NCBI GenBank assembly: GCA_963675755.2
Contig: CAXXMD010000003.1
Location: 160,001 to 224,000 of the forward strand
Direction: 5' to 3'
Length of the DNA stretch: 64,000 bases
DNA from: a bacterium
GTDB taxonomy: Bacteria; Zhuqueibacterota; Zhuqueibacteria; Residuimicrobiales; Krinioviventaceae
Shown here: positions 19,352 to 33,233 of the stretch, one piece after another
Position numbering within the stretch: the first letter of the stretch is position 1
Layout: every line of letters begins with the position of its first letter
Made by a program: the position numbers and the translations under genes
Notes under the pieces: model-generated
What the model saw: only the letters and a program-made list of their open reading frames with translations
Told to the model about the DNA's origin: nothing
The model's database searches: none

Positions 19352-21655
19352 TCATTGCAATTTAATCATTTTTCGAATCTGTTGCAAGTTCCCAATTTTT
19401 AAAACATAAAAATATTCGCCCGAACCTGTCTCCTGACCTGATTCATTAAATCCATCCCATACAACTTGAAAATAACCCGCCTGAGCAGGAGCATTAACCA
19501 GGGTACGCAAGCGACGTCCTAGAACATCATACACATCCAAACGAACATTGCCGGAAAGATTATCCGGAACTTGATATGCAATCCGGGTAACCGGATTGAA
19601 AGGATTGGGATAATTCTGAAATAATGCCATTTCTTGTGGCGCTTTGACTGTTAAATGCACAACATCACTAAATTCAACAGATCCATCTGTATCTACCTGT
19701 TTTAAGCGATACATAACAGTTCCGGTTACATCAATTTTATCCGTAAAACTATAACGATTACTGGAAGTGGTTGTACCAGCACCATTGACAAATGCCACCT
19801 CTTGCCAGGCATTCTGTGTTCCTGATTTTCTTTCAACTGAGAAACCCAGATTGTTGGTTTCCGATTCAGTAATCCAAACCAGTTCAATATGATCATCTAC
19901 CTGATTTGCTGTAAATAACGACAACTCTACCGGCGATGTATTTTGCCCCGCAAGATTTGAAAAGTCTGACCAGTTTTCATACTCGTCTGATGAACGAATG
20001 TAAAAGTAATATCTTTTATTCATTGTCAGATTGTTAATAGTAACACTTTGTGTTTGTCCGGGTTCAGCAGGACTTGGCATATTATCTACAAACGCAGCAC
20101 CATTCCACCAGGTTTCTACACCATAAATTGGCAGTGCTGTGCTGTATTTCATTTGATACTGATAAGCAGGGCCTCCGGCATCCCCATCATCTCCGGGAGC
20201 AGTCCATGACAGGGTTACAAAATCCTGCCCGCTGTCAGAAACTAACAAATCTGCAATTTTAGCAGGTTTGATTGTATCCACTGGAAAGTTCTGTTCAGAC
20301 AAGGTTATATTGTCCGTTCCTATAGGGTTCTCATGAAAAGACTTGATCACGGCAGCACTGTCAGGAGACAAATTAGCTCCCAAAAAGTAAAGCCAAAGCT
20401 GTATATCAATTCTGGATTCCTGTGAAAAAGAACCGGTATATTTTACACCAGTATCACCCCAGGAACCATTCACACCGGTATCAAAAGCCTGATCGCCACT
20501 CAAGGGACTATCATTTGTTCCTGTTAGATCATCTTTATAATAAAGATACTGATTAACAGCAACATCAGGAAGTTCTGCTATACCCAACAAAGTTCCGGGT
20601 GTACCTGTTTGCATCCACCAGTTCCACCCCGGGATATTTAAATCACGGGGAACACCAATATCATCACTTTCTGTTGTTCGGTTAACAAGCGATCCATTCG
20701 GCTTGGCAGAAAGAGCATTTTCAGCAAACATATGCATACCATTGGCTGATGGATCGAGATCATAAGACAGCCTTAAAAAATCAACATCTGCATCTGCAGG
20801 TATCTTTAATTGTCTAAAAGATCCCATATCGCAGCTAGTGGGATAATATTTTACAATATAATCAAAAACAGGTAAATCAATTGCGCCTTGCAATTCGGGT
20901 ACTTCGAGTTGAATTTTCCAATTTCTGACAACACGAATTTGTCCTTCAATGCCGCTCGCATTCTGTTTCGTTAAATTTTCCTCGGATAACACCAGGGTGA
21001 CTGAACCCAGAAATCCCAAATCATAAGATCCTCTAACCCTGATCTTGAAACGGTCAATAAAATCTTCACCATTGCCGCCACCATCATTGGTTAACAGCAA
21101 AGTGGTCATAATACCATTACTCGCATTATGGGCAACCTGGTAAAATTGACTTTCTACCCGGTCCAGACTTGCATCGTATTGAATATAATCAGTAGCCACA
21201 GGATGTGAGGCTTTATTGTCAGTCCGGTAAACATATACATATCCATCATCACCACTCAATGGATCATGTATCTGTACCTGATAACGAGGATAATTTCTGG
21301 AACTCTCGTCGGAAATCCAAGAAGAGGAAGGAGCAACATCTCCACAATCATTGGCCAAAACCAATAGTTCATCATTAGCGGTTAACAGATTATCCTGGCC
21401 ACTAAACATGTAATCGTTATCTGAATCCAAATCATCAATTTGATATGAAATAGCTGTCCAACTTGATGAAAGATCCGAATACGAATAAACAACCAAATTA
21501 TTATGAGAGATGTTCAGAAATCCCTGAAACTCAGCCCCCTTGATAATCACAGGTTCATAAGCTCTGTTTGTCACAGCATACAAACTTGAATAAATCAGCA
21601 CAACAATAAGCAATGCACTGAAAAGGAAAAAAGATTTTTTTTCAGGAGATTTCAT
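19352..21655 (-). CDS. Secreted protein: unknown N-terminal domain, FN3 domain, PVEL-type domain, CTD
   Basis: Start at ATG 21655 after a GGAAGGAG RBS. Signal peptide. 'LSWTAPGDDG' FN3 motif, 'PVELSLFTA..WITESETNNLGF', [11 protein letters not shown]. Confidence 0.8.
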   Translation of the reverse strand: MKSPEKKSFFLFSALLIVVLIYSSLYAVTNRAYEPVIIKGAEFQGFLNISHNNLVVYSYSDLSSSWTAISYQIDDLDSDNDYMFSGQDNLLTANDELLVLANDCGDVAPSSSWISDESSRNYPRYQVQIHDPLSGDDGYVYVYRTDNKASHPVATDYIQYDASLDRVESQFYQVAHNASNGIMTTLLLTNDGGGNGEDFIDRFKIRVRGSYDLGFLGSVTLVLSEENLTKQNASGIEGQIRVVRNWKIQLEVPELQGAIDLPVFDYIVKYYPTSCDMGSFRQLKIPADADVDFLRLSYDLDPSANGMHMFAENALSAKPNGSLVNRTTESDDIGVPRDLNIPGWNWWMQTGTPGTLLGIAELPDVAVNQYLYYKDDLTGTNDSPLSGDQAFDTGVNGSWGDTGVKYTGSFSQESRIDIQLWLYFLGANLSPDSAAVIKSFHENPIGTDNITLSEQNFPVDTIKPAKIADLLVSDSGQDFVTLSWTAPGDDGDAGGPAYQYQMKYSTALPIYGVETWWNGAAFVDNMPSPAEPGQTQSVTINNLTMNKRYYFYIRSSDEYENWSDFSNLAGQNTSPVELSLFTANQVDDHIELVWITESETNNLGFSVERKSGTQNAWQEVAFVNGAGTTTSSNRYSFTDKIDVTGTVMYRLKQVDTDGSVEFSDVVHLTVKAPQEMALFQNYPNPFNPVTRIAYQVPDNLSGNVRLDVYDVLGRRLRTLVNAPAQAGYFQVVWDGFNESGQETGSGEYFYVLKIGNLQQIRKMIKLQ

Positions 21656-21702
21656 ATATACTCCTTCCATTTTTTTAAAAGCGGAAGGATCTAACAAACA
21701 TA

Positions 21703-22044
21703 TTATTTATCAAAAGCGTTAGTAGCCTCTTCCACAGTATCAAATGTATCAAAAATAGTGATTAATTTTGTGATCATGAACAAACTTTTTACTTTTTCTG
21801 TAACGCGAGACAATTTTAAATCACCATCTGCATTTCTCAGTGTGGTCATTGATCCCATCAATGCGCCTAAACCAGTACTATTCATCCATGTAACTTTACC
21901 TAAATCTATAACAACTTTTTTAACTCCGTCAGCAACCAGTTCTTTAACTTTAGTATGTATTGCTGCTGTTTCCGGGCCGCCCATTAATTTCCCTTTTAAC
22001 TCGATAATTGCAATATCACCTTGCATTTGCTCTTTAATAGGCAT
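21703..22044 (-). CDS. STAS-domain anti-sigma-factor antagonist
   Basis: 'VVIDLGKVTWMNSTGLGAL' with the phosphorylatable Ser. GGAGG RBS before ATG 22044. Confidence 0.92.
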   Translation of the reverse strand: MPIKEQMQGDIAIIELKGKLMGGPETAAIHTKVKELVADGVKKVVIDLGKVTWMNSTGLGALMGSMTTLRNADGDLKLSRVTEKVKSLFMITKLITIFDTFDTVEEATNAFDK

Positions 22045-22125
22045 TTTGTATTCCTCCAAATTATAATTTCAGATATCAATTTTGCTTAAGCAAAGATAAA
22101 ACATTTTTAGCTATAAATCAACTTT

Positions 22126-22869
22126 TTATTCACCGTTAAAACTGGGTTCAAGATATTGTTTGGCCTGGTTATTTTCCGGATTCAATTCAATTGCACGGTT
22201 AAAAATTTTAAAGGCCCTTTCCGGCCATCCACTGTCAAGGCACAACACACCGACCTCATTTATTCGGTTATCCATATCTTCTTTTCCCAGAATTTCTTCC
22301 AGGAGTTGTTTCAAGGATTTGTCAAATGCATTTGTAACATATCTTTCATTTTCAAAAAGATAGAGCAATACTGCAAGGTTTTTATCAGAGTCTTTTAATA
22401 CGCACTTTGCTTTTTCAATGCCGACCTTGAATAATCCCTCCATATTATTCACATAATAATCCAACAATACTTTGATCTGTTTGTAATCATCGCTGTCGGT
22501 TTTATAATATTCCAGCATGTATTTCAATTCTCGAGCAACAGTAGCTTTGTGAAACAACAGTCCCACATTGTTCATAAAATCAATTTCGTCGTCATTGGGT
22601 GTATACTTGAACGACTTTTCAACTCCCTCCTGGTAGGGATCGCCTATTCGTTTGAACAAGAGGTGTAAATCTTCTTTTGCTGTAAAAAGCAATTCAGAAA
22701 ACTTTTTCATCTTTTCAAATGAAACCTCACCTCCTGCAGAGTAATCCAGAAACAGCTTTGAAAACAGATTTTTTGCATACAAAAAATCTGCTATTACTTT
22801 ACGTAACAGCCACGATTTATTTGCAGCAATAAAAGGACTTACTTTATCTGACATTTTTACACCTGCCAC
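22126..22869 (-). CDS. Hypothetical helical protein with a C-terminal TPR
   Basis: 'G.L.L..GWPERA...FNRAIELNPEN..A..YL' TPR signature. Confidence 0.75.
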   Translation of the reverse strand: MAGVKMSDKVSPFIAANKSWLLRKVIADFLYAKNLFSKLFLDYSAGGEVSFEKMKKFSELLFTAKEDLHLLFKRIGDPYQEGVEKSFKYTPNDDEIDFMNNVGLLFHKATVARELKYMLEYYKTDSDDYKQIKVLLDYYVNNMEGLFKVGIEKAKCVLKDSDKNLAVLLYLFENERYVTNAFDKSLKQLLEEILGKEDMDNRINEVGVLCLDSGWPERAFKIFNRAIELNPENNQAKQYLEPSFNGE

Positions 22870-22910
22870 TCATAGATTAGATAAACAAAATTTACATTAA
22901 AAAATTTCAA

Positions 22911-24284
22911 CTAAATATGAATAATATCATTTTCGCCTTTAATAAAACTTGCAATATGGTCTGCTATCAATCTCTCCAGGTCACAATTCTGAACTGTATC
23001 CATATTCAGCAGATTTACCATTTTACTAGTATACAACCAACTTGCAACAATGTCAATCCTTTTGTTTGTTTTATTTACAGTTGGAGCGGAAAAAAATTCT
23101 AAAACGCGGTTAACAATTTCGCTCAACTCTTTATATTGTTTTTGCACTTCCAACTCTAAAAGACCATGGTTAGGCTTTACACAATAAAGCTTGATCATAC
23201 TCGCATCAAAATGCTCTAAAAACAAAATACAAGGTTTTAATCGGGCTGAAGGAATACTTCTTTTATGCACATCAATCTGCTTATTGATATCCGGATCATA
23301 ATTTTGTATTGCCTCATATTCAAGCAATAACGCTTCAAGCTCGGAACCCGCAAGACGAATTTCTACAGATCTGATCCTATCGCGAATACTTGAAATCTTT
23401 GCTTCTAAATTTTCTGTTTCACGAAAGTAGGAATTTACCCTTTCATACAAATTTCTGGATTTGCCAACGTACATGACTCTATCATTCACATCTCGCATAA
23501 GATAAATGCCCGGCAATTCGGGTAATCCGTTCAGATATTCCCTGTCAAATTGATATTGTGAAAAATCAATTGCTTCAGCTGTTGATTCACAATAATCGGC
23601 AATTTGAACAGCATCTTTTAAACCAAGGGTTTCACACAATTCAAAGGTTGCGGTAAATTGCTCCAGAAATAATTCAAACTGCTGATCGGGCGCTGCATTT
23701 TCCAGATGTGTCACTCCCAATGCACTCGAAATCTGACTGCTTTCACTGATTTTGTTTTCCGGTTGCAATCGCTGTAAAAGTCGTTTTAAAAAAATAATTT
23801 GACTACTAAACTCATGTCCCGTAACCTGCAAAAACATTCGTCTGAACAAAGAGACTTGATTACCAAAACCATCAAAAACAACAATTTGGCCATCTGCTTT
23901 CGCTTTAATCTCTTTGCAAATTCTTTTCAACTCATCATCAGAATATTCTTTGAGTTGTTTTTCAGTCAATAATATAGATTTTTCACCCCTGGGAAATGAA
24001 CGAATATCAAGACGAGCCCAGTCCCAAAATGAGAGTGACCGTTCAGGAACAGCTTTTATCAGAATAAAATCAGTGTCAAGATTAGAATTTTCTATTGGAT
24101 TTACCAAACACCAGGTGTGATCTTTAGATTTGACTATACGATTTGAAGTGGATACTGTGGATTGTACAAGCATATCACAGATGCCGGAATTCACTTCCGG
24201 CATCTTGAAAACATTCTTTACTATATCAGCAGAAGTTGCTTTGCCCCCATTTTGATCAAGAAAATCAATAATGCGTTCTATCAT
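22911..24284 (-). CDS. UvrC/Cho-type GIY-YIG endonuclease with a degenerate DnaQ-like N-terminal region
   Basis: 'LPELPGIYLMRD...MYVGKSRNLYERVNSYF...SELEALLLE...P..N'. Confidence 0.8.
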   Translation of the reverse strand: MIERIIDFLDQNGGKATSADIVKNVFKMPEVNSGICDMLVQSTVSTSNRIVKSKDHTWCLVNPIENSNLDTDFILIKAVPERSLSFWDWARLDIRSFPRGEKSILLTEKQLKEYSDDELKRICKEIKAKADGQIVVFDGFGNQVSLFRRMFLQVTGHEFSSQIIFLKRLLQRLQPENKISESSQISSALGVTHLENAAPDQQFELFLEQFTATFELCETLGLKDAVQIADYCESTAEAIDFSQYQFDREYLNGLPELPGIYLMRDVNDRVMYVGKSRNLYERVNSYFRETENLEAKISSIRDRIRSVEIRLAGSELEALLLEYEAIQNYDPDINKQIDVHKRSIPSARLKPCILFLEHFDASMIKLYCVKPNHGLLELEVQKQYKELSEIVNRVLEFFSAPTVNKTNKRIDIVASWLYTSKMVNLLNMDTVQNCDLERLIADHIASFIKGENDIIHI

Positions 24285-24299
24285 TAATTGCCTGGTTCA

Positions 24300-24764
24300 T
24301 TAAACCATTCTGGCTTTACCAAACAGAGCTACTCCCAATATTCCACCAACCAGCCCGAATATACTATTAATTATTAAATTAATAATTAATCCAATAATAA
24401 ACGTGCCTCCCGTCAGAGTTCGGGCGGGAATCTCGTCAAAAATGGATTGTATATCCGGATCACTGATGTATTGAGAGACAAAGTCCAAAAAATTAACAGA
24501 CAATGAGCCGGTAATACTGGTCAATACAACGGCAATAACCGCTCCGATAACACCTGCCAGAAATCCCAGCAATGCACCATCAGACATACTTACCCTGCCC
24601 TCCGGAGCCTGCTGCCTGCGATAAAGGTAAATGGTAAACATTCCACCACCAATTACCCCTGCACAACATGCACAGTTGATAAAATTTAGTATAGGAATGC
24701 CACTGACAACTCCAATTACAACTCCACCTAAAAGTGCCGAGTTCCATTTACTATTGTTGTCCAT
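24300..24764 (-). CDS. Integral membrane protein, Gly-rich, with an 'NCACC' motif
   Basis: About four hydrophobic helices. GGAG RBS. Confidence 0.75.
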   Translation of the reverse strand: MDNNSKWNSALLGGVVIGVVSGIPILNFINCACCAGVIGGGMFTIYLYRRQQAPEGRVSMSDGALLGFLAGVIGAVIAVVLTSITGSLSVNFLDFVSQYISDPDIQSIFDEIPARTLTGGTFIIGLIINLIINSIFGLVGGILGVALFGKARMV

Positions 24765-24788: not shown

Positions 24789-25901
24789 TTAGAAAAAAAC
24801 ACCCAAATCTCTTAATTCAGCATCATCCATTGCGTCCAAAGTAAATTGGGGCAATGCGGTTTCCATATCAACCGGGCGAATTTCCATACCTTTAATACCA
24901 ACCATTAATCCGGATTGGTTTTGGTGTACCAGTTCTACCGCTTTTCTACCAAAACGCTGACCCAGGTTGATATCAAACGCATTTGGTGCAAGACCACGTA
25001 AACTGAAGCCAATATTAGATTGACGTACACGGCTCAAACCAACACCCAATCCCTGAACCAGAATTCTTTGTATAATAACACCTGTACCACCGAGTTTCAG
25101 ATTGCCATGCGGATCGATTTCAGGATCTTCTGACAACATGGATTTCAATACGCCATCCTTGGCATCATCTGCTACTGCTTTTTTAAACAAGGGGTCGTTT
25201 TGATCAAAATTCACACCTTCAGACACAACAATATTGGCGTATCCTTTAGCATCATTAATCGATTTTACTTTTTCTACAAGTGCTTGTAGTTCAAAATTCT
25301 TTTCAGGTACAAGAATAACATCTGCACCGCTTGCAACCCCAGAAAAAAACGCAAGCCATCCAGCCTTACGGCCCATAACTTCGTTCACAGAAATTCTTGC
25401 ATGCGTATCAGCAGAAACAGAAGTGCTTCTAAATGCCTTTGTAGCAAAATCAATAGCAGTATGCGCTCCCAACATCCAATCGGTTTCACTGATATCATTA
25501 TCAATACTTTTTGGAATAGCAATTGTAGGGAAATTAATCTTGTGCATTCCCCACGCGGTGTTTACGGTGTCATTACCTCCGGTTGCAATAATAGCATCAA
25601 CACCCAGCTTTTTCAGGTTTCCCAACAATTTTTCTGGTGCCCATGAATTATTTTTATCATTAAAGGGAGCAAAACGGGAAGATCCCAAAATGGTGCTGGG
25701 GGCATCAAAAATAGATAACGCATCGTTGCTGTCCAACGGTACAATATAATCTTCAACATTATCAGCAGCTAAACCTTCAAACGCTTTTTTTACACCAATA
25801 AAAGTATCACCATATTTAGATGCGCCATGCAATATAGAACGGGCAATTGCCGAATTTATACCTGCACAATCACCACCACCGGTCACAAATGCAATTTTCA
25901 C
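24789..25901 (-). CDS. pfkA: 6-phosphofructokinase (PfkA family), PPi-type signature residues
   Basis: TGGGDCAGIN, TILGSSR, GGND, PKSIDND and EVMGR motifs. GTG start after AGGAG. Confidence 0.9.
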   Translation of the reverse strand: MKIAFVTGGGDCAGINSAIARSILHGASKYGDTFIGVKKAFEGLAADNVEDYIVPLDSNDALSIFDAPSTILGSSRFAPFNDKNNSWAPEKLLGNLKKLGVDAIIATGGNDTVNTAWGMHKINFPTIAIPKSIDNDISETDWMLGAHTAIDFATKAFRSTSVSADTHARISVNEVMGRKAGWLAFFSGVASGADVILVPEKNFELQALVEKVKSINDAKGYANIVVSEGVNFDQNDPLFKKAVADDAKDGVLKSMLSEDPEIDPHGNLKLGGTGVIIQRILVQGLGVGLSRVRQSNIGFSLRGLAPNAFDINLGQRFGRKAVELVHQNQSGLMVGIKGMEIRPVDMETALPQFTLDAMDDAELRDLGVFF

Positions 25902-25964
25902 AACATCTCCTTTATATTAATTTTTATCAAATATTTGAATTTAAATAATATATTGAATTTATAT

Positions 25965-25998
25965 AAAAAAAGACAGACAAAAAATCTTGCCTGTCTTT
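25965..25998 (-). terminator. Intrinsic terminator oriented on the minus strand, upstream of pfk
   Basis: AAAGACAGGCAA-GATTTT-TTGTCTGTCTTT followed by more Ts. One stem position is a G-U pair only in the minus orientation. Confidence 0.75.
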
Positions 25999-26333
25999 CT
26001 TTTTAGATAATACATTCGCCCTACCGATGTAATATCTTTGTGTAGAACTTTTTCCTGTCATCGTGGTTTGGCAGCCCCCTGCTCTATATCCACAATATGG
26101 AAGGAACAAGTTCCCCCATTTACTCAAGTGTGTTCCTCGAACACACCCCCTCATCTTATATGCGACCCCTCAAACTGTATAATCACTTCGAATAATGGCA
26201 TATATTAATATAGTGCCTTAAAATATGCAAAATCTTACACTTTATTTTAAAAATATCACTTTTTTTTGTATTTATTTCTTGTATATTAACTTTATACACG
26301 CTTTTTTTTGTCTTTTTGAGGAGATTCTTCAAA

Positions 26334-26969
26334 ATGGATCACAAACGACAAGGTACAAACGATATGACACTAGGTGACCTCCTCGACAACTGCACCAATC
26401 CCAACTCCCCTGTTTGGGAAAAAAGCTGGCAGGAATTCCTCAACAGGTATCAAAATTTCATCTATAAACTTGTATTAAATCGATGCAAAAGCTGGAATTT
26501 GCAACGTATTCAATGCCAGTTACAAGAAGAGGTTGATGACATTGTATTTATAATTATAAGACACTTTATTAAAGACGATTATCGTTTTTTAAAACAATTC
26601 CAAAACCGCGATAACCCACAGCTTTTTCTATTGTACCTATCTACACTCATCAATAGAATTACTAGAAGACATTTGGCAGTTCATTTCAACAAAATTTTAG
26701 ATAACCTTGATGAAGATCAGACAAAAGACACTTTGAAGGAAATATCCCCCGAAGCAGGTTGGGAAATTTACGAAGAACTGATACAAACGCTTCGCAACAG
26801 CATAATTAATAAACATCCCAATAATGAACGCAACATACACCTCTTTCTTATGTATACATGGACAGATATGTCGATTGATATGCTTACCCACAATGATTTT
26901 TACAAACCAATGGGGCAAAATGCCATATATACATTGATAAATCGCATGAGAAATAAAATAAAAGTGTAA
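26334..26969 (+). CDS. Divergent ECF-like RNA polymerase sigma factor
   Basis: GAGGAG RBS then ATG 26334. Region-2-like 'WQEFLNRYQNFIY...EEVDDIV...F.....F..YL..L..R'. Region-4-like 'RNIHLF.M....MS........M...AIY.LINRMRNKI'. Confidence 0.7.
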   Translation: MDHKRQGTNDMTLGDLLDNCTNPNSPVWEKSWQEFLNRYQNFIYKLVLNRCKSWNLQRIQCQLQEEVDDIVFIIIRHFIKDDYRFLKQFQNRDNPQLFLLYLSTLINRITRRHLAVHFNKILDNLDEDQTKDTLKEISPEAGWEIYEELIQTLRNSIINKHPNNERNIHLFLMYTWTDMSIDMLTHNDFYKPMGQNAIYTLINRMRNKIKV

Positions 26970-27030
26970 GATTTTAGTTATAAAACTACACTATATTAAT
27001 AACTGATAACTGTAAAAAGCAAGGTAGTTC

Positions 27031-27441
27031 ATGAGCAGCAGCATAATCGTTCATAAACTTTCAATAGGCAAAGTTTTATCTATAATTCAAGATGATCAAA
27101 ATAGAGAGAAAAATATCTTAGAGAATTATCCGGAATCTATTCATTATTATAATAGCTTAAAGGCCCGTTTCAACAAATTTGAAAATGACCCCAATCTCGC
27201 AAATTCGATATTCAACAGTATCCCGAAACAATGTTGCCAGGCCAACAAATCTTTTTTGAAAGATAACGATGATTTTTTTATCGCGTATACTATACTTTCA
27301 AAAAAGCAAGATATTCACATTAACAATGCTAAACAGTTTATTCATCATTTAAATAACTGCTATTGGTGTTTCATTGAATATAACCAGTTTATAAATGATG
27401 AATACTTTACTAACAAAGAAATTGAGACGGGGGTACTGTAA
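27031..27441 (+). CDS. Small cytoplasmic protein with an HxxxCxxC (ZAS/zf-HC2-like) motif
   Basis: 'FIHHLNNCYWCFIEY', plus an upstream CC pair that could supply the fourth ligand. AAGGT RBS. Confidence 0.65.
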   Translation: MSSSIIVHKLSIGKVLSIIQDDQNREKNILENYPESIHYYNSLKARFNKFENDPNLANSIFNSIPKQCCQANKSFLKDNDDFFIAYTILSKKQDIHINNAKQFIHHLNNCYWCFIEYNQFINDEYFTNKEIETGVL

Positions 27442-27445
27442 TAAT

Positions 27446-28558
27446 ATGCGTGAATTAAAAATAACATATGAGCAAATTCTGGAATATATTAATAATCCGG
27501 ATACCAAATCTATAAATATCAGTGAATTAAAAGAAAGCGATCCTGCTTGCTTTTCTCTTTTCACAATGATAGATAATAGCCTGAAACATGCAAATTCGCA
27601 AAATATAGGCACAGAAAACACCACCGCAGGATATCATGAACTCGAAATGATAATCCTGGAACAATTGAGTGGCAATGTTACCAGGTACAACTCGGAAAGA
27701 TTTTTATCTCTCATTACCAGTCATCCTGATTATTACAGAAGAATTCTGGACACCTTTGACACGGAATCCATTCAAGCAGTTAAACTTGAAAACATTGAAA
27801 TCTCAGACAATAACACCCTTATTGAAATAATAAAAGGTCATGAAAGCAATAAAGAAATCCATAAACAATCCACGTTCTTACAATTAAAACTAGTTCTAAA
27901 CCGTTTTTTTCAAAATCTTTTTATGCCAAACAAAAGACCACATTATGCTTTAATCGCAGTTGTCGTTATGACTTTTTCCATTCTCACATTTAAAACCTTT
28001 TTTCAGGAATCTGTTCATAATCCTGTCTATACAAAATATTTCCAATCTTCTAATTTACCTTGCGAATATTATGAAACCTCTACCAGAGGCAACGTTGTAT
28101 CTTTTGATTCAGATTCTCAATACAACAAGACACTAAATCAATTTAAATTCGCAATGGCTGATTATATTCAAAAAAACTATCAAGATGCAAAAAAATCACT
28201 CAACACTATCCTAACTGAAATTGAATCTGGCTCCACACAATCATTGAATACAAGTTCAAATGGAAAGCAACTATTAAGAGACATTTATTTTTACACAGGT
28301 ATTTGCGACCTGGCACTAGCCGGCAAAATGTTTGACACCTCTTTAATTGAATCTGCTTCTGATAGATTCAATACCGCAAAAAAACTGGTTCTTGAATCCA
28401 ACATGAAAGGAGGTGACCGAGAGTTCTTTTTCCTGGGTTTAACTTTTAACCTGCTGGGGAACGATTCACGCTCGCTTGAATATTTGGGGAACATTCAGGA
28501 AAACAGTATCTATTACAGAGATAGTCAAGTTATTGTATCGCAGCTAACGAACCGATAG
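27446..28558 (+). CDS. Single-pass membrane protein (anti-sigma-like) with a C-terminal TPR-like domain
   Basis: ATG 27446 lies 4 nt after the upstream stop, with a GGGGGT RBS. One TM segment (YALIAVVVMTFSILTF) preceded by KR. Then 'ETSTRG' and TPR-like helices (AMADY...NYQDA; YFYTGICDLA; FFLGLTF...G). Confidence 0.7.
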   Translation: MRELKITYEQILEYINNPDTKSINISELKESDPACFSLFTMIDNSLKHANSQNIGTENTTAGYHELEMIILEQLSGNVTRYNSERFLSLITSHPDYYRRILDTFDTESIQAVKLENIEISDNNTLIEIIKGHESNKEIHKQSTFLQLKLVLNRFFQNLFMPNKRPHYALIAVVVMTFSILTFKTFFQESVHNPVYTKYFQSSNLPCEYYETSTRGNVVSFDSDSQYNKTLNQFKFAMADYIQKNYQDAKKSLNTILTEIESGSTQSLNTSSNGKQLLRDIYFYTGICDLALAGKMFDTSLIESASDRFNTAKKLVLESNMKGGDREFFFLGLTFNLLGNDSRSLEYLGNIQENSIYYRDSQVIVSQLTNR

Positions 28559-28568
28559 GAGACAACGA

Positions 28569-28733
28569 ATGGAGTTATTTTACCTGTTAATGTCTGGTGT
28601 TGTTGCAGCTGTAACCAAAAGGCTGGTTGATATAAAAAATTTCCAACGGGAAACTGGCATCATTAAATCCCATGGAGGGGATGATCCGGATCCACCACCA
28701 CCCCCTCCCGACCCACCAGATCCCAATTGTTAA
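28569..28733 (+). CDS. Unannotated 54-aa peptide MELFYLLMSGVVAAVTKRLVDIKNFQRETGIIKSHGGDDPDPPPPPPDPPDPNC
   Basis: AGGAGA RBS overlaps the upstream TAG, with a 6-nt spacer to ATG. Pro codons are varied (CCG/CCA/CCC/CCT). A terminator hairpin follows directly. Shorter than any ORF in the track (60 aa minimum). Confidence 0.75.
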   Translation: MELFYLLMSGVVAAVTKRLVDIKNFQRETGIIKSHGGDDPDPPPPPPDPPDPNC

Positions 28734-28740
28734 TTAAAAC

Positions 28741-28770
28741 GGTCCTGCCCTTTTTTGCAGGGCCATTTTT
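28741..28770 (+). terminator. Intrinsic terminator / 3' stabilising hairpin after the peptide gene
   Basis: GGTCCTGC-loop-GCAGGGCC followed by ATTTTT. Confidence 0.7.
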
Positions 28771-28786
28771 CGTTAAAACCTGCCTG

Positions 28787-28815
28787 TTGCATTTGAATAT
28801 TTTTTGATTTATCTT
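28787..28815 (+). promoter_or_regulatory. Candidate sigma70-type promoter of the CHAT gene
   Basis: TTGCAT-N17-TATCTT between the terminator and the CHAT start. Confidence 0.4.
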
Positions 28816-28844
28816 GTAATTCAACTAATATTTCATATGTGAAA

Positions 28845-31800
28845 ATGAAAAAACTAATTCCAACATTACTCCTCTTGATATCAAGTTGTCTTGCTTTTGC
28901 AAATCAGGATAATGTGGAATATTATGACTTTCTTCAAACCCTGCAAGGCCTATCAGACAGCACACAGCTTGAACACACCTTGAACTATTTATATGACCAT
29001 CCTGATTTTTGGAAAATATATGAAAAAGCATATAGATTATTTACTTATACGGGTCAAAAAGAAAAGGCATATACTTTTTATGCAAATCTGGTAAATGACA
29101 AACAATATTCACCTTATGCAAATCTGTATTTGTCAAAACTCTACAGAGAAGACAATAAAGCTGATTTCGCCAAACAATATTTTATTTCCGGGTTAGAACA
29201 AAGACAAGATTATTATATTATCTCCGAGTATGCAAAAAATTATACCAATTCATCCCAAATTGACTCAATAGCAAAAAGCCTCTTAGACAGCACCCAATTA
29301 TTGATGGCTAATGGAATGAGTAATTACTACAAGGCCAAATACACTGAGGCAATTGACCTGCTTGAACAAGTATTACAGCATGACAATAATTTAAATTTAC
29401 AGATCATGCTTGGTTATTGTTACATTATCAATAACCAGCATCAACAAGCAGATTCGGTATTTGAAGCAGGTTACAATGATGCAATAAAACAATATAATAT
29501 AGACGGTCAGATTATTTTTTTACAATCATTGGGCAAACTAGCGCTTACACAGAACAACTATAATAAAGCAGAAACGCTGTTAAACAAAGCCCTGGAAAAA
29601 TCTGATGAAATCATAGATTACAGGCGTAAAATAACAACTTTTAATGAACTGGGAAAATTAAAACAAAAACAGGATAAAACAGATTCAAGCTTGGTATATT
29701 TTAATCTGGCCCAATCATACTCTGATAAATTTAAAGGGGAAATACAACTTGCTCAGGTCCTGAGAAATGGATACAATTTTCATCTACACCATCAATACTC
29801 TCAAGCAGTTCAATGCTACAAAGAATCTATCGAGTTGATTGAACCTAATGACTGGAATAATGAATTACGTGTAAAAAGCCTGCTTGTAACACTATATGAA
29901 CGTTTTGGCATGATCAGCCTCATGAACCAAATGCTTGCTGAATGTAAAGTTTTGGCAAATGAAAATAATTACATCAGCACACAAAAATGGGTAGAACTTC
30001 AGGAAATAAAAAATCAACTTTCATTAGATAATTTAGATATTCAAAGGAAAAACCTGGTTAAATTATATAATTATTATCTTAACAAAGGAAATAACAATTT
30101 ATACGGTTGCCTACACACACTTGCCAAGTCCTACATTATTGAGCATAAATATAAAAAAGCACAAACTTTTTATCAATTAGCACTCGATCAAGCTATTAAA
30201 ACAAACAATCAGAGTAAAATAGCATATTATTATGCCCGACTTGCATTTTGGGATATTAAATGCGATGAAACAGACAAAGCCTTGGCAAGGCTGGATTCGG
30301 CAAAAACAATAATTAATAAAATTGACGATTCATATATGGCCAGATTTGTATATAGAACAACGGGGTTGGCACATGAAAAAGCGGCTGATTATGACAGTGC
30401 ACTGGTCTATTATTACAAAGCTATACCTCATACTGAACGGCTTCGTAATAAATTATCAGCCGAAGATCTGAGAATTGGGGTCTTTTCAAGCGATGCCTCT
30501 ATTTACCAGGGTATTGCCCGCAGTTATTTGCAAAAGTACATCTCGAGCAACAATTCTTCCTTATTAGACAGCCTGTATAAATACGAAGAAAGCTTTAGAA
30601 GCCGTGCACTGAAAGACAGAATGGACAATCGAAATATTATGTCCGGTTCAGGCAAGCCGACTAATGAATACTCGCAAGCAATGGAGATGATTTCAGATTT
30701 ACAACAAAAACTGAGAAAACAGGCAGGGACAGAACACACAGATCCCGAATGGGACCAGTTAATGGGCGATCTTGAAGCTGCAAAATACACATTAATCCAG
30801 CAGCGTATATTTATGATTGACAGCTTAAAAACCAGTCAACAAAAAGATTCCGGTACATCTGTGCAATTGTCAGAAATCCGAAAGCAGCTTGAGAAAAACA
30901 ACGCGGGTTTACTTGAATACCACATTGACAGCGAAATCTCGTTTGTTCTAGTAGTAACACCTGACACCACCCATACAGTATTGCTTGCAACCTCCCAAGA
31001 TTCACTTTCAAAAAAAATAAAAAAACTAATGTCTCCATTGCATGATTTGCAAGAGCAAGATCCCAAGATCCCGTTTTATGCCCAAACAGCATATCAACTT
31101 TATGCGGAAATATTTAATCCCATTGAAAAAGAGATCAAACTGCCGGAGAACCTGCTGGTCATCCCGGATGGTCCATTAATGAATCTTCCATTTGAAATGC
31201 TAGTCACACATAAACCAAACAAAGCCGCTTATACCCCCTTGGACGAACCAGACTATAGCAATTCCTTTTTATTGAATCAATATTCATTATTTTACAGCCC
31301 CACCAGCAATATACTAAAAAAATCAGGCTTGAAATTGCTCAACAGACCCAACATGATGGTTTTTGCAAATCCGTTTTCAAATGTTAATGAAATTTCAGAC
31401 AATGTATTACAATACCGTTCACGTACCGGCTGGAATTTTCAGGCCCTCCCGTTTGCTGAACTGGAAGCAAATGAAATATCAAAATTAACTAGCCGGGTCA
31501 AGCTCTACAAACGACAAAACGCAATTGAAACCTACTTTTCCCAAAATGCATCCAAATATGACATTCTCCATCTTGCTACACACGCTTTTGTAGACACTTC
31601 ATTTGAAGCTTTTTCAGGCCTTATTCTTGCTTCCAGTGAGGATTCTACAAACGATGGAATTTTAATGGGTTATGAAATAGAAGACCTTGATCTGGATTGT
31701 GAACTGGTTACATTGAGTGCATGCGAAACCGGTAGAGGCAAAAATATGGCCGCAGAAGGATTGCTGGGCTTGCCCCGATTATTTATGGGAGCGGGAGCAA

Positions 31801-32141
31801 AATCCGTTCTCATGTCACATTGGAAAGTGGATGACCGATTTACTTCAAAACTGATGCCTTTATTTTATCATTATTATTTAACAAAAAAAATGGACAAAGC
31901 AGATGCGCTAGCAAATGCCAAGAGGGATCTTATTAAATCATCGCAAGAAATAAACGGGGAGCATTACCAGCACCCCTTATACTGGGCTGCATTTACTTTA
32001 TATGGCAATCCTGATAAAATCACAAACACATCACCCATTTTACCGGCAGCCATATTGGGTTCAATTTTCATTTTTGCGATACTCGGTGGAGCAGTTGTTA
32101 AAAAAAAGAAAAGCACAAAAAAAAGCGGACATTTAAATTAA
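28845..32141 (+). CDS. Exported TPR-CHAT (caspase/HetF-like, clan CD) cysteine protease with a C-terminal membrane anchor
   Basis: Signal peptide MKKLIPTLLLLISSCLAFA. Many TPRs. CHAT motifs IPDGPL..LPFE.L, ILHLATHA (His), LVTLSACETG (Cys), GAGAKSV.MSHWKVDD and HPLYWAAFTLYG. C-terminal TM followed by KKKK. Alternative GTG start at 28839. Confidence 0.9.
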   Translation: MKKLIPTLLLLISSCLAFANQDNVEYYDFLQTLQGLSDSTQLEHTLNYLYDHPDFWKIYEKAYRLFTYTGQKEKAYTFYANLVNDKQYSPYANLYLSKLYREDNKADFAKQYFISGLEQRQDYYIISEYAKNYTNSSQIDSIAKSLLDSTQLLMANGMSNYYKAKYTEAIDLLEQVLQHDNNLNLQIMLGYCYIINNQHQQADSVFEAGYNDAIKQYNIDGQIIFLQSLGKLALTQNNYNKAETLLNKALEKSDEIIDYRRKITTFNELGKLKQKQDKTDSSLVYFNLAQSYSDKFKGEIQLAQVLRNGYNFHLHHQYSQAVQCYKESIELIEPNDWNNELRVKSLLVTLYERFGMISLMNQMLAECKVLANENNYISTQKWVELQEIKNQLSLDNLDIQRKNLVKLYNYYLNKGNNNLYGCLHTLAKSYIIEHKYKKAQTFYQLALDQAIKTNNQSKIAYYYARLAFWDIKCDETDKALARLDSAKTIINKIDDSYMARFVYRTTGLAHEKAADYDSALVYYYKAIPHTERLRNKLSAEDLRIGVFSSDASIYQGIARSYLQKYISSNNSSLLDSLYKYEESFRSRALKDRMDNRNIMSGSGKPTNEYSQAMEMISDLQQKLRKQAGTEHTDPEWDQLMGDLEAAKYTLIQQRIFMIDSLKTSQQKDSGTSVQLSEIRKQLEKNNAGLLEYHIDSEISFVLVVTPDTTHTVLLATSQDSLSKKIKKLMSPLHDLQEQDPKIPFYAQTAYQLYAEIFNPIEKEIKLPENLLVIPDGPLMNLPFEMLVTHKPNKAAYTPLDEPDYSNSFLLNQYSLFYSPTSNILKKSGLKLLNRPNMMVFANPFSNVNEISDNVLQYRSRTGWNFQALPFAELEANEISKLTSRVKLYKRQNAIETYFSQNASKYDILHLATHAFVDTSFEAFSGLILASSEDSTNDGILMGYEIEDLDLDCELVTLSACETGRGKNMAAEGLLGLPRLFMGAGAKSVLMSHWKVDDRFTSKLMPLFYHYYLTKKMDKADALANAKRDLIKSSQEINGEHYQHPLYWAAFTLYGNPDKITNTSPILPAAILGSIFIFAILGGAVVKKKKSTKKSGHLN

Positions 32142-32177
32142 ACATCCGCTTCCATCATTATATAAAATCCTGAATTG

Positions 32178-33233
32178 CTAGCCAATAGCAATCATACGAT
32201 CCACAGCTGTCTTTGCTCTCACCCGAATATCTTCTGGCACTTCAATCTGATATCTCATCAATTTCAAAGCATCCCGGGTTTCTTCCAGGGTTATTTCATT
32301 CATATGTGGACACCGAACACTGCAAAGCCTGAGCATTTCCTTGTCAGGATTCTCACCGGCAATATTGTCACCCATGCTGCATTCAGTCAACAGCAAATAT
32401 CGCTCTGCCTTTGTCTCTTGTACATATTTGATCATACCGGTTGTGCTGCCCGCATAATCCGAAGCCTCAATAACTTCAGGACTGCATTCAAGGTGCGCCA
32501 ATACCACAACATCCGGGAATTGTTTACGTACATTTGCAACATCCTCGGGGGTAAATTGCTCATGCACTTCACATTTCCCCGACCATCCAACAATCTGATA
32601 ATCAAGCCCATTGCCACGCTTGGAAACATCTGAAGGATCTTTTGATGGAAAGATTATGCGCTTTCCCGTTTCCTGTGCAATATTTTTAGCCATAAATTCA
32701 TCCGGCAAAAAAATAATAGCCTCATCACCAAAGGATTCCACAACCTGCACAGCATTACCCGAAGTACAGCACACATCACTTTCTGCTTTTACATCAGCAT
32801 ACGTATTCACATACGTAACAACCGGTACACCGGGAAACTCTTTTTTCAATTTACGCACATCTTCTGCTGTTATGCTTTCTGCCAAAGAACAACCGCCCTT
32901 TGGAGATGGTAATAATACCGTTTTATCAGGGCTCAGGATCTTGGCTGTTTCAGCCATAAATCTTACACCACAAAAAACGATAACATCTTTATCCGTTGTA
33001 GCTGCAAGGCGTGACAGTCCCAAAGAATCTCCGGTATAGTCTGGTACTGAATGAAACAGAGCGGGTTCCATATAGTTATGACCCAGAATAACGGCATTCC
33101 GTTCTTCTTTGAGTTGATTTATCTCCATGGCAAGTTCCGCTTTGATACGCAATTCAACATCCGGAACGATGCCTTTGAGTTTTATTTTTAATTTATCAAA
33201 CATTTCGTCAACAGTTTTAGCTGCAATAGCCAT
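32178..33233 (-). CDS. nadA: Quinolinate synthase
   Basis: LGHNY, GDSLGL, FCGVRFMAETAKIL, GGCSLA, YVNT.A.VKA.SD.CCTS.NA, C.VH and CPHM motifs. Confidence 0.97.
   Translation of the reverse strand: MAIAAKTVDEMFDKLKIKLKGIVPDVELRIKAELAMEINQLKEERNAVILGHNYMEPALFHSVPDYTGDSLGLSRLAATTDKDVIVFCGVRFMAETAKILSPDKTVLLPSPKGGCSLAESITAEDVRKLKKEFPGVPVVTYVNTYADVKAESDVCCTSGNAVQVVESFGDEAIIFLPDEFMAKNIAQETGKRIIFPSKDPSDVSKRGNGLDYQIVGWSGKCEVHEQFTPEDVANVRKQFPDVVVLAHLECSPEVIEASDYAGSTTGMIKYVQETKAERYLLLTECSMGDNIAGENPDKEMLRLCSVRCPHMNEITLEETRDALKLMRYQIEVPEDIRVRAKTAVDRMIAIG

Follow-up and report, generated by a model that had tools for sequence, protein, structure and literature searches.

A candidate sigma/anti-sigma cassette with a separate TPR-CHAT protease in a member of the Zhuqueibacterota

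Five genes between pfk and nadA

We analyzed a stretch of 64,000 nucleotides (hereafter the window; contig CAXXMD010000003.1 of assembly GCA_963675755.2, positions 160,001 to 224,000 of the forward strand) from a bacterium of the Krinioviventaceae (Zhuqueibacterota), whose genome (G000) comprises 6.5 Mb in three contigs. Between the housekeeping genes pfk and nadA, the listing of open reading frames (ORFs) of the window contains five ORFs, all on the plus strand and in the order sig-zas-tm-pep-chat, just as a first-pass annotation of the same DNA had described them. Their predicted products are a divergent sigma factor of the extracytoplasmic function (ECF) type, a candidate zinc anti-sigma protein, a single-pass membrane protein, a small membrane protein, and an exported TPR-CHAT protease, which may together form a transmembrane signaling module. 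Coordinates of the cassette given below refer to the plus strand of the window.

The sig gene (26334..26969) encodes 211 amino acids (aa) when read from an ATG with GAGGAG located 10 nt upstream; an alternative TTG at 26316 would extend the product to 217 aa. The AlphaFold2 (AF2) model of this divergent ECF-type protein has a mean predicted local distance difference test (pLDDT) score of 78.8, with values of ~90 for residues 10-120. Using the VIA all-against-all structural search, we found that the 16 best rows were all sigma factors, headed by SigW (5wuq_A; Z 9.6, root-mean-square deviation (rmsd) 3.4, 96 residues aligned), with further rows for sigmaE region 2 (Z 9.4, rmsd 3.1, 104 aa), SigK (Z 9.3, rmsd 2.4, 86 aa), and AlgU (Z 9.1). 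Foldseek also placed sigmaE first, and isolated region 2 matched with a probability of 0.99 and TMt of 0.73-0.77, at E-values of just 0.3-1. Moreover, hhalign aligned sig with ten ECF factors of the same genome (probability 68.5%, E 4.6e-5) over 175 collinear columns that cover both regions, in which NDI...IF takes the place of the canonical region 2.1/2.2 residues D..QE.F of these factors. A search of PDB sequences with the sig profile gave no sigma match, the best being an OmpR-type regulator (E 0.23).

The family defined by sig is large, with 1147 representative clusters at E<=1e-3. Analysis of 36 distant relatives, taken from rank 93 downward among the best 150, revealed Sigma70_r2 in 13 and Sigma70_r4_2 in two more at E<=0.01 (15/36 in total); Sigma70_r4_2 was matched in 3/36, and five of the 36 reached the Pfam cut-off (24 bits). 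The sigma-4-like block of sig is strongly conserved, with the invariant residues E165, R166, I168, F171, and Y174 (ERDI..F..Y), and the length of 211 aa leaves no room for further domains such as sigma-1.1 or sigma-3. Judged from sequence and models, sig is a very divergent, ECF-like member of the sigma-70 family with a predicted sigma activity, its sigma-4 part being less certain. The proposal of the first-pass annotation that the 211-aa protein is sigma-like is supported by the model, the hhalign result, and the distant relatives.

The product of zas (27031..27441) is a soluble protein of 136 aa without a transmembrane (TM) helix, which carries KQFIHHLNNCYWCF, that is, an HxxxCxxC motif, near its C-terminus. 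Eight residues are invariant in 15/15 members (P65, C69, H106, L107, N108, C110, C113, and F114), defining the pattern C-x36-H-x3-C-x2-C. Canonical ZAS domains (n = 7, from this and a related genome) have the same CHCC order with a Cys-to-His spacing of 25, compared with 36 in zas, and hhalign of zas against their seven N-termini gave a weak match (probability 26%, E 7.2e-4) that is in register on HxxxCxxC. We infer that the motif binds zinc. A search of PDB sequences with the zas profile yielded no match, an Atlas search with zas was uninformative (best score 0.76), and, as weak evidence, no long fused version of the protein turned up. In the homolog of locus L048, a Met replaces the motif His. 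A homolog in locus L066 (1184-1543) lacks the motif His and both Cys residues, and a tm homolog with a GLRGN linker motif is still located next to it.

Prediction of a complex between sig and zas gave an ipSAE of 0.72 (0.68-0.74 in three runs), whereas the three controls reached 0.19 at best. Repeated runs had at least 88% of contacts in common, with a partner pLDDT of at least 78. Of 80 solved complexes, 58 attain this ipSAE mark, as do two of 110 mismatched pairs, counts that are rough because our own alignments were used; part of the score may reflect mere likeness, because sigma/anti-sigma complexes are abundant among solved structures. The predicted interface joins residues 139-189 of sig with residue 71 and residues 90-128 of zas and pairs the invariant ERDI..F..Y block of the former with the invariant HLN.C..CF block of the latter. 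These predictions support zas as the cognate partner of sig, with a CHCC domain that would clamp the sigma-4-like domain. Thus, the protein that the first-pass annotation had picked out by its HxxxCxxC motif is a plausible zinc anti-sigma, placed on the sigma by the predicted complex.

The third gene, tm (27446..28558), encodes a predicted single-pass, N-in membrane protein of 370 aa. The ORF opens at 27395, and the true start is probably at 27446 (MRELK; MRKFK in a relative) because the ortholog in genome G001 has a stop upstream of that start. One hydrophobic helix (residues 168-186, 27947-28003 in the window protein) is present in 12/12 orthologs and is preceded by basic residues, which suggests that the N-terminus lies inside. 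In the AF2 model (mean pLDDT 74.1), a cytoplasmic helical domain (residues 1-165) precedes the helix, and the C-terminal 150 residues form three TPRs (PlcR, Z 15.6; YbgF-TPR; consensus TPR, probability 1.00), predicted to be a periplasmic domain of residues 224-368 (28115-28549). TPR_2 was matched in 8/12 orthologs. The earlier description of a single-pass protein with a C-terminal TPR domain is therefore supported by the 12 orthologs and the fold match. The helix and the TPRs are joined by a variable linker; residues 211-221 are the only periplasmic stretch of the model below a pLDDT of 50, and this disordered segment holds T-R214-G, with the conserved R214-G215 at 28085-28090. Arg followed by Gly, Ser, or His occurs in the linker of 12/12 orthologs ([LT]R[GSH] in 10/12) and also in L014, L048, L052, L066, and a paralog in genome G011; because these sequences are kin, the motif is a lead and not a statistic. 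An Atlas search with the N-terminus of tm gave a weak lead (score 0.88) to a cluster with zf-HC2 in 38% of its members. Topology and models support a role of tm as a membrane sensor or tether, whose cytoplasmic domain would contact zas or sig.

The largest gene of the cassette, chat (28839..32141; alternative ATG at 28845), encodes 1100 aa and is the only one of the five whose window product is recognized by Pfam, with PF12770 at E 2.7e-59 (201 bits, the cut-off being 24) in addition to TPR families; NCBIfam adds nothing of note. The protein consists of a signal peptide (approximately residues 1-22, ending in AFA before N), a TPR superhelix (approximately residues 30-700), the CHAT domain (residues 750-1057, 31086-32009) with H915 (31581-31583) and C962 (31722-31724), and a C-terminal TM helix (residues 1067-1087, 32037-32099) followed by a KKKK tail. 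Multiple alignment of chat homologs showed that LHLATH (H911, H915) and LSACETG (C962) are invariant in 10/10, all of which also have a signal-like N-terminus and a C-terminal hydrophobic helix with a K/R tail. Because of these termini, chat should be periplasmic and tethered to the inner membrane. When the CHAT domain alone was compared with PDB sequences, a single match was obtained, 8rot_B (DdvA of Myxococcus xanthus, discussed below; also 8rw5), at E 0.0056, in an alignment that spans both the His and the Cys; the full chat profile found TPR proteins only, and the single full-length sequence found only a designed TPR. It appears that chat is a cysteine protease with an intact His/Cys dyad and a putative substrate within the cassette, and the export, anchor, and intact dyad assigned to it in the first-pass annotation were recovered by Pfam and in all ten homologs. 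Outside the window, at G000:C3:1758838-1762449, the genome contains a 2827-aa frame with two CHAT domains and no visible link to a sigma gene, which has counterparts of 2818-2827 aa in genomes G001, G005, G014, and G017.

Between tm and chat lies pep (28569..28733), a small membrane protein gene of 54 codons whose product starts with a TM helix and ends in a Pro-rich, acidic tail. Neither Pfam nor NCBIfam gave a significant match to it. A small ORF (47-74 aa) of the same architecture and in the same place was detected in 13 of the 14 other family loci that cover the tm-chat junction; in G007, no pep is present at this junction, and the gene is confined to the family. The frame differs from that of G001 in 21 codons, 13 of them synonymously and eight nonsynonymously, and all ten differences in codons 37-54, which encode the Pro-rich tail, are synonymous; pep is therefore a real gene, translated and held under selection. 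In 12/14 orthologs, the segment that follows the helix has a net positive charge, and the short N-terminal flank carries either no net charge or a negative one. According to the positive-inside rule, the tail would be cytoplasmic (N-out/C-in) and thus away from the TPRs, all of which are predicted to be periplasmic, which argues against a role as a periplasmic ligand. The idea that the 54-aa product is a free, secreted peptide acting on the TPRs was rejected on this predicted topology. It is probably an accessory subunit of a membrane complex.

Conservation of the gene set and its surroundings

To investigate the distribution of the cassette, we compared 18 other genomes of the family with G000. 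Named relatives are metagenome-assembled genomes (MAGs) labeled as candidate division KSB1, 'Calditrichia', or 'uncultured Cytophagia'. Nine of the 18 (G001, G003, G004, G006, G008, G009, G010, G013, and G014) contain a contiguous sig-zas-tm-(pep)-chat set placed between GIY-YIG/pfk and nadA, and in five more (G007, G015, G016, G017, and G018) the set is interrupted by contig ends alone. G011 has sig-zas without the rest, directly adjoining nadA (1/18), and in the remaining three (G002, G005, and G012) sig is missing and CHAT is represented only by weak paralogs (E 1e-26 to 1e-43). The gene order and its flanks recur across the family far beyond chance, and the cassette is a fixed locus that is inherited vertically. 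A tandem pair of full-length chat genes (1108 and 1156 aa) follows one sig-zas-tm-pep set in G014 (L010, 7895-14861), and the same duplication was seen in metagenome locus L060.

A second set consisted of 17 metagenome loci found with the sig profile. Among the 15 with at least 400 nt downstream, zas is next to sig in 13; tm follows zas in ten loci, and chat is present in all three that reach more than 1.5 kb past tm. Unrelated genes follow sig in L062 and L073. The distant, 'Calditrichia'-labeled loci L041 and L046 contain sig-zas-tm, and in a 'Calditrichia' MAG (L044, 7974-13736) sig-sig-zas-tm is followed by a second sig-zas-tm, a tandem amplification. In L048, the triad is followed by two extra genes and then by a lipoprotein-type TPR-CHAT; L060, L065, and L069 are further distant triads with chat beside them. 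The distribution in loci outside the family suggests that the core is the sig-zas-tm triad, with chat as a frequent fourth member. Co-conservation of the cassette genes, which the first-pass annotation had made a test of its proposal, was thus found in both the family and the metagenome loci.

G011 also contains a paralogous cassette (L049, G011:C237, 2862-7935) composed of a sigma, an anti-sigma, a 107-aa ORF without TM helix, and a TPR-CHAT gene. The sigma has weak Sigma70_r2, r4, and ECF matches (E 3e-4 to 2e-3), and the TPR-CHAT protein matches at E 9.7e-55. The anti-sigma (277 aa) passes the zf-HC2 threshold (E 1.5e-6) and continues through a TM helix into a periplasmic part that resembles tm and was aligned with it by hhalign (probability 88.7%, E 2.6e-6, 68 columns); hhalign of sig or zas against the single paralog sequences was not significant. 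The DdvS/DdvA pair of Myxococcus xanthus offers a fully fused counterpart: according to its published description, DdvA is a transmembrane anti-sigma that needs no Cas protein and exposes a TPR-CHAT part to the periplasm, and its 991 residues hold zinc domain, TM helix, TPRs, and CHAT in one chain (PMC11506125). The G011 paralog is a half-fused intermediate between DdvA and the split cassette, and we read the three as a fission/fusion series. It is mainly because of this series that we think the parts of the cassette work together.

In the window, the cassette is flanked by genes for PFK (24789-25901) and NadA (32178-33233), both on the minus strand. Beyond NadA lie genes for an RsmB/F methyltransferase, an Fe-S assembly protein, and a PAS histidine kinase; the PFK side also contains a GIY-YIG protein and a 154-aa multi-pass membrane protein without a Pfam family (24300-24764, minus strand, between the GIY-YIG gene and pfk), which is kept in several family genomes (tblastn, 36-95% identity). 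The first-pass annotation had noted an AT-rich block. Indeed, GC content is 0.30-0.38 over 26500-30500, below the 0.41-0.44 of pfk and nadA, and about the first two thirds of the cassette fall below the flanks; however, the GIY-YIG region at 21500-23500 is equally AT-rich (0.33-0.35), and the 3' half of chat reaches 0.38-0.41. As the GIY-YIG region has the same composition, composition marks no island, and an interpretation as a genomic island was rejected in view of the family-wide synteny at a fixed locus. The cassette does appear to be CRISPR-free, as had been stated: no tandem repeat array with a score of at least 80 was detected in the 64-kb window, and PADLOC matched none of the five cassette proteins. 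A search of Rfam over 25700-32400 at E<=1 returned just three sub-threshold matches at chance level.

The 430-nt divergent intergenic region between pfk and sig (25902-26334) has a GC-rich core at approximately 26010-26210. A hairpin with A/T runs at approximately 25969-26005 is terminator-like on both strands, although it coincides with the end of no gene. The intergenic region is 96% identical in G001; Rfam does not match it, and no DNA-level relatives were found beyond the genus. A sequence resembling the E. coli sigmaE promoter, GGAAC-N16-TCAAG, is present upstream of sig in the window, and was found in only 2/17 loci and is absent from G001; it was dropped as a candidate sig promoter because it is not conserved. 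Across the 17 loci, the sequence upstream of sig yielded no conserved ECF-type promoter, and inspection of the upstream regions by eye revealed no shared promoter motif.

A possible route to sigma release

We propose, with a probability that we put at about one half, that the cassette is a five-protein transmembrane sigma/anti-sigma module which is gated by CHAT acting in trans on tm. In the resting state, zas would hold sig, probably docked on the cytoplasmic domain of tm. A periplasmic signal sensed by the TPR arrays would activate CHAT, and CHAT would then act as a site-1 protease, cleaving the juxtamembrane linker of tm in trans; the first-pass annotation had likewise supposed that CHAT cuts the single-pass protein. 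Cleavage after Arg is usual for proteases of clan CD, and for this reason the cut would most likely fall after the conserved Arg of the linker. An RseP-type site-2 protease of the genome, which encodes a Peptidase_M50 member (E 1.2e-66), would remove the tm stump. The hold of tm and zas on sig would thereby be lost, and sig would direct the transcription of a putative regulon.

A more ambitious version of this proposal may also be formulated. The cassette might represent the first trans-acting, caspase-like site-1 protease for sigma activation, cutting after the conserved Arg and thereby freeing a sigma that Pfam misses, with a zinc-finger subunit detached from the membrane part as its holder and with pep as a stoichiometric adaptor or inhibitor of a three-helix membrane complex by a securin-like logic; DdvA, the G011 paralog, and the split cassette would then form a series of one ancient machine. 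We consider this version tentative and somewhat unlikely.

Several observations weigh against the module as proposed; they are set out here in three groups, each followed by one rival explanation. The first group concerns the link between chat and the other genes. A terminator-like hairpin (28741..28774) with an 8-bp stem of which six pairs are GC, followed by ATTTTTCGTT, lies between pep and chat, and of 12 loci folded, six have a similar hairpin with a T-run immediately downstream of pep (the window and, among the other 11, L009, L010, L014, L019, and L021; RNAfold, judged by eye). Because of this hairpin, chat is probably its own transcription unit, and its regulation may be independent of the other genes or may even depend on sig. 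In L044, no chat was found in the 2.9 kb after the tandem triads. In G010 (L014, 6857-10355), chat is split into four ORFs (469, 290, 289, and 132 aa), the other four genes of the cassette being intact; the split gene could be a pseudogene or result from a frameshift or assembly error in this five-contig assembly. For DdvA itself, the published description states that dyad mutants behave like the wild type, that the signal is unknown, and that autoproteolysis is hypothetical (PMC11506125). It is conceivable that chat is an output or an independent periplasmic protease, either controlled by sig or a mere neighbor acting on other envelope substrates, and that sig, zas, and tm are self-contained and respond to other proteases or to conformational or redox signals. 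The presence in the genome of CHAT proteins unlinked to sigma genes, such as the 2827-aa ORF with two CHAT domains, would agree with this. On the other hand, chat has stayed with the triad at one locus throughout the family, it accompanies the distant triads L048, L060, L065, and L069 as well as the G011 paralogous pair, genomes without sig also lack a close chat ortholog, and CHAT is physically fused to the anti-sigma in DdvA as described. We therefore regard chat as an output or bystander as unlikely, while taking it seriously.

The second group concerns zas. No Pfam family matches zas; PF13490 was found in 0/15 members of its family, and zas is not among the six PF13490 matches of the whole genome. 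The predicted interface involves the C-terminal domain of sig alone and leaves out sigma-2, and hhalign of tm, including its cytoplasmic domain, against ZAS domains gave nothing significant (E 0.12). In addition, sig-zas pairs without tm or chat occur in genome G022 and in one G011 locus; such bare pairs fit a cognate couple. One might suppose that zas is a free-standing, RsrA-like redox zinc anti-sigma, that sig answers cytoplasmic thiol or oxidative stress, and that tm, pep, and chat take no part in sigma release. That zas is soluble, has the CHCC ligand set, and is predicted to bind sig by itself would be consistent with such a role. However, tm follows zas in nearly all loci that extend far enough (in ten metagenome loci, in all complete family loci, and in L041, L044, L046, and L048), and the zinc domain is covalently joined to a membrane part in the G011 paralog and, as published, in DdvA. 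The L066 homolog, which has lost the His/Cys motif and retained its tm partner, also speaks against this role. A purely cytoplasmic redox switch seems quite improbable to us.

The third group concerns the identity of sig. Searches of the window protein against Pfam and NCBIfam gave nothing significant; Sigma70_r2 was approached in one of 14 orthologs only (best E 0.069) and in the window protein not at all. No sigma factor was matched by Foldseek at E<=1e-3, and residues 140-211, the sigma-4 part, have a pLDDT of 60-76 and no clean match to a sigma-4 fold. With the canonical region 2.1/2.2 residues replaced and no Pfam model at threshold, sig could have a sigma-like fold without a role in initiation, for example as a decoy or an adaptor. 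We hold this to be very improbable: the alignment with ECF factors runs collinearly through both domains, conservation of the sigma-4-like block is strong, graded links lead to proteins that pass the Sigma70_r2 cut-off (5/36), and the family is large (1147 representatives at E<=1e-3). The cassette also brings to light a sizeable sigma-like family missed by current domain models (1147 clusters) together with a two-piece anti-sigma design, both of which bear on the counting of ECF regulators in uncultured phyla.

Comparison with known systems

Within the literature that we searched, the work on ECF sigma/anti-sigma factors and the CHAT domain, which deals with DdvA, Craspase, and, in a preprint, a type III-B SAVED-CHAT system, describes no split, Cas-free cassette, and a search of the literature on KSB1 sigma factors yielded nothing relevant. 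The closest precedent is DdvS/DdvA. As far as its description goes, DdvA binds DdvS through sigma-2 and sigma-4, and its authors propose, as an unproven idea, that the DdvA CHAT domain clips the juxtamembrane linker as a site-1 protease before RseP; DdvA-like proteins are reported there in Myxococcota and one Comamonas only (PMC11506125). The two systems share a sigma of the ECF type, one TM helix, and a TPR array plus CHAT domain with the His/Cys dyad, in the cassette predicted to be periplasmic as in DdvA; each has a CHCC zinc anti-sigma domain, which in the cassette is predicted to bind the sigma-4-like part, and both would sense without any Cas protein. In DdvA, autoproteolysis in trans within a dimer has been proposed, whereas the cassette distributes the domains over three separate ORFs: the zinc domain stands alone as a soluble protein, tm supplies the TM/TPR sensor, and the TPR-CHAT protease is encoded by itself, with a signal peptide and a C-terminal rather than an N-terminal anchor helix. 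The cassette also adds a small TM protein and has a far more divergent sigma; no defense island (CBASS or CRISPR) is nearby, its flanks being pfk and nadA, and it occurs in MAGs labeled as KSB1 or 'Calditrichia'. The putative site-1 role of the DdvA CHAT domain is hard to test, as a single chain holds both the protease and its substrate and no signal is known, according to the account of that system (PMC11506125). In the cassette, protease, candidate substrate, and sigma-binding subunit are separate genes, and the role of CHAT would therefore be directly testable.

The first-pass annotation had drawn its comparison with type III-E Craspase, in which Cas7-11 together with Csx29 (a TPR-CHAT protein) cleaves Csx30, an inhibitor of CASP-sigma, as reported (PMC10028731). 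The shared logic stands, in that a TPR-CHAT protease is tied to the release of an ECF-like sigma from its inhibitor. However, DdvS/DdvA is a much closer precedent, and the idea of the same logic working across the membrane without Cas is not new, because a CHAT site-1 cut had already been proposed for DdvA in the published account. Craspase is cytoplasmic, RNA-guided, and bound to Cas7-11, whereas the protease of the cassette is predicted to be periplasmic, the inhibitor has a zinc motif, and the window contains neither a CRISPR array nor a PADLOC match.

Two classical systems illustrate the separate halves of the design. In the RseA/DegS/RseP pathway, which releases sigmaE by regulated intramembrane proteolysis, a single-pass, N-in anti-sigma is cut by a site-1 protease in the periplasm and then by an M50 site-2 protease (PMC10028731; PMC11506125). 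The scheme proposed for the N-in tm protein is alike, and an M50 protease is encoded in the genome; the differences are that site-1 would be a caspase-like CHAT protease instead of a PDZ serine protease and that the sigma-binding domain resides on a separate protein. In RsrA/SigR, the anti-sigma is a soluble ZAS protein with HxxxCxxC and an upstream Cys, encoded beside its sigma. The zas protein resembles it in being small and soluble, in having HxxxCxxC and an upstream Cys, and in the position of its gene adjoining that of the sigma. It differs in that its motif lies near the C-terminus with a spacing of 36 (25 in the canonical ZAS domains compared above), that a membrane partner follows it, and that it escapes PF13490. 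Taken together, the cassette would be DdvA-like in its working and would have only its logic in common with Craspase; it is neither a single polypeptide of the DdvA type nor a Craspase module.

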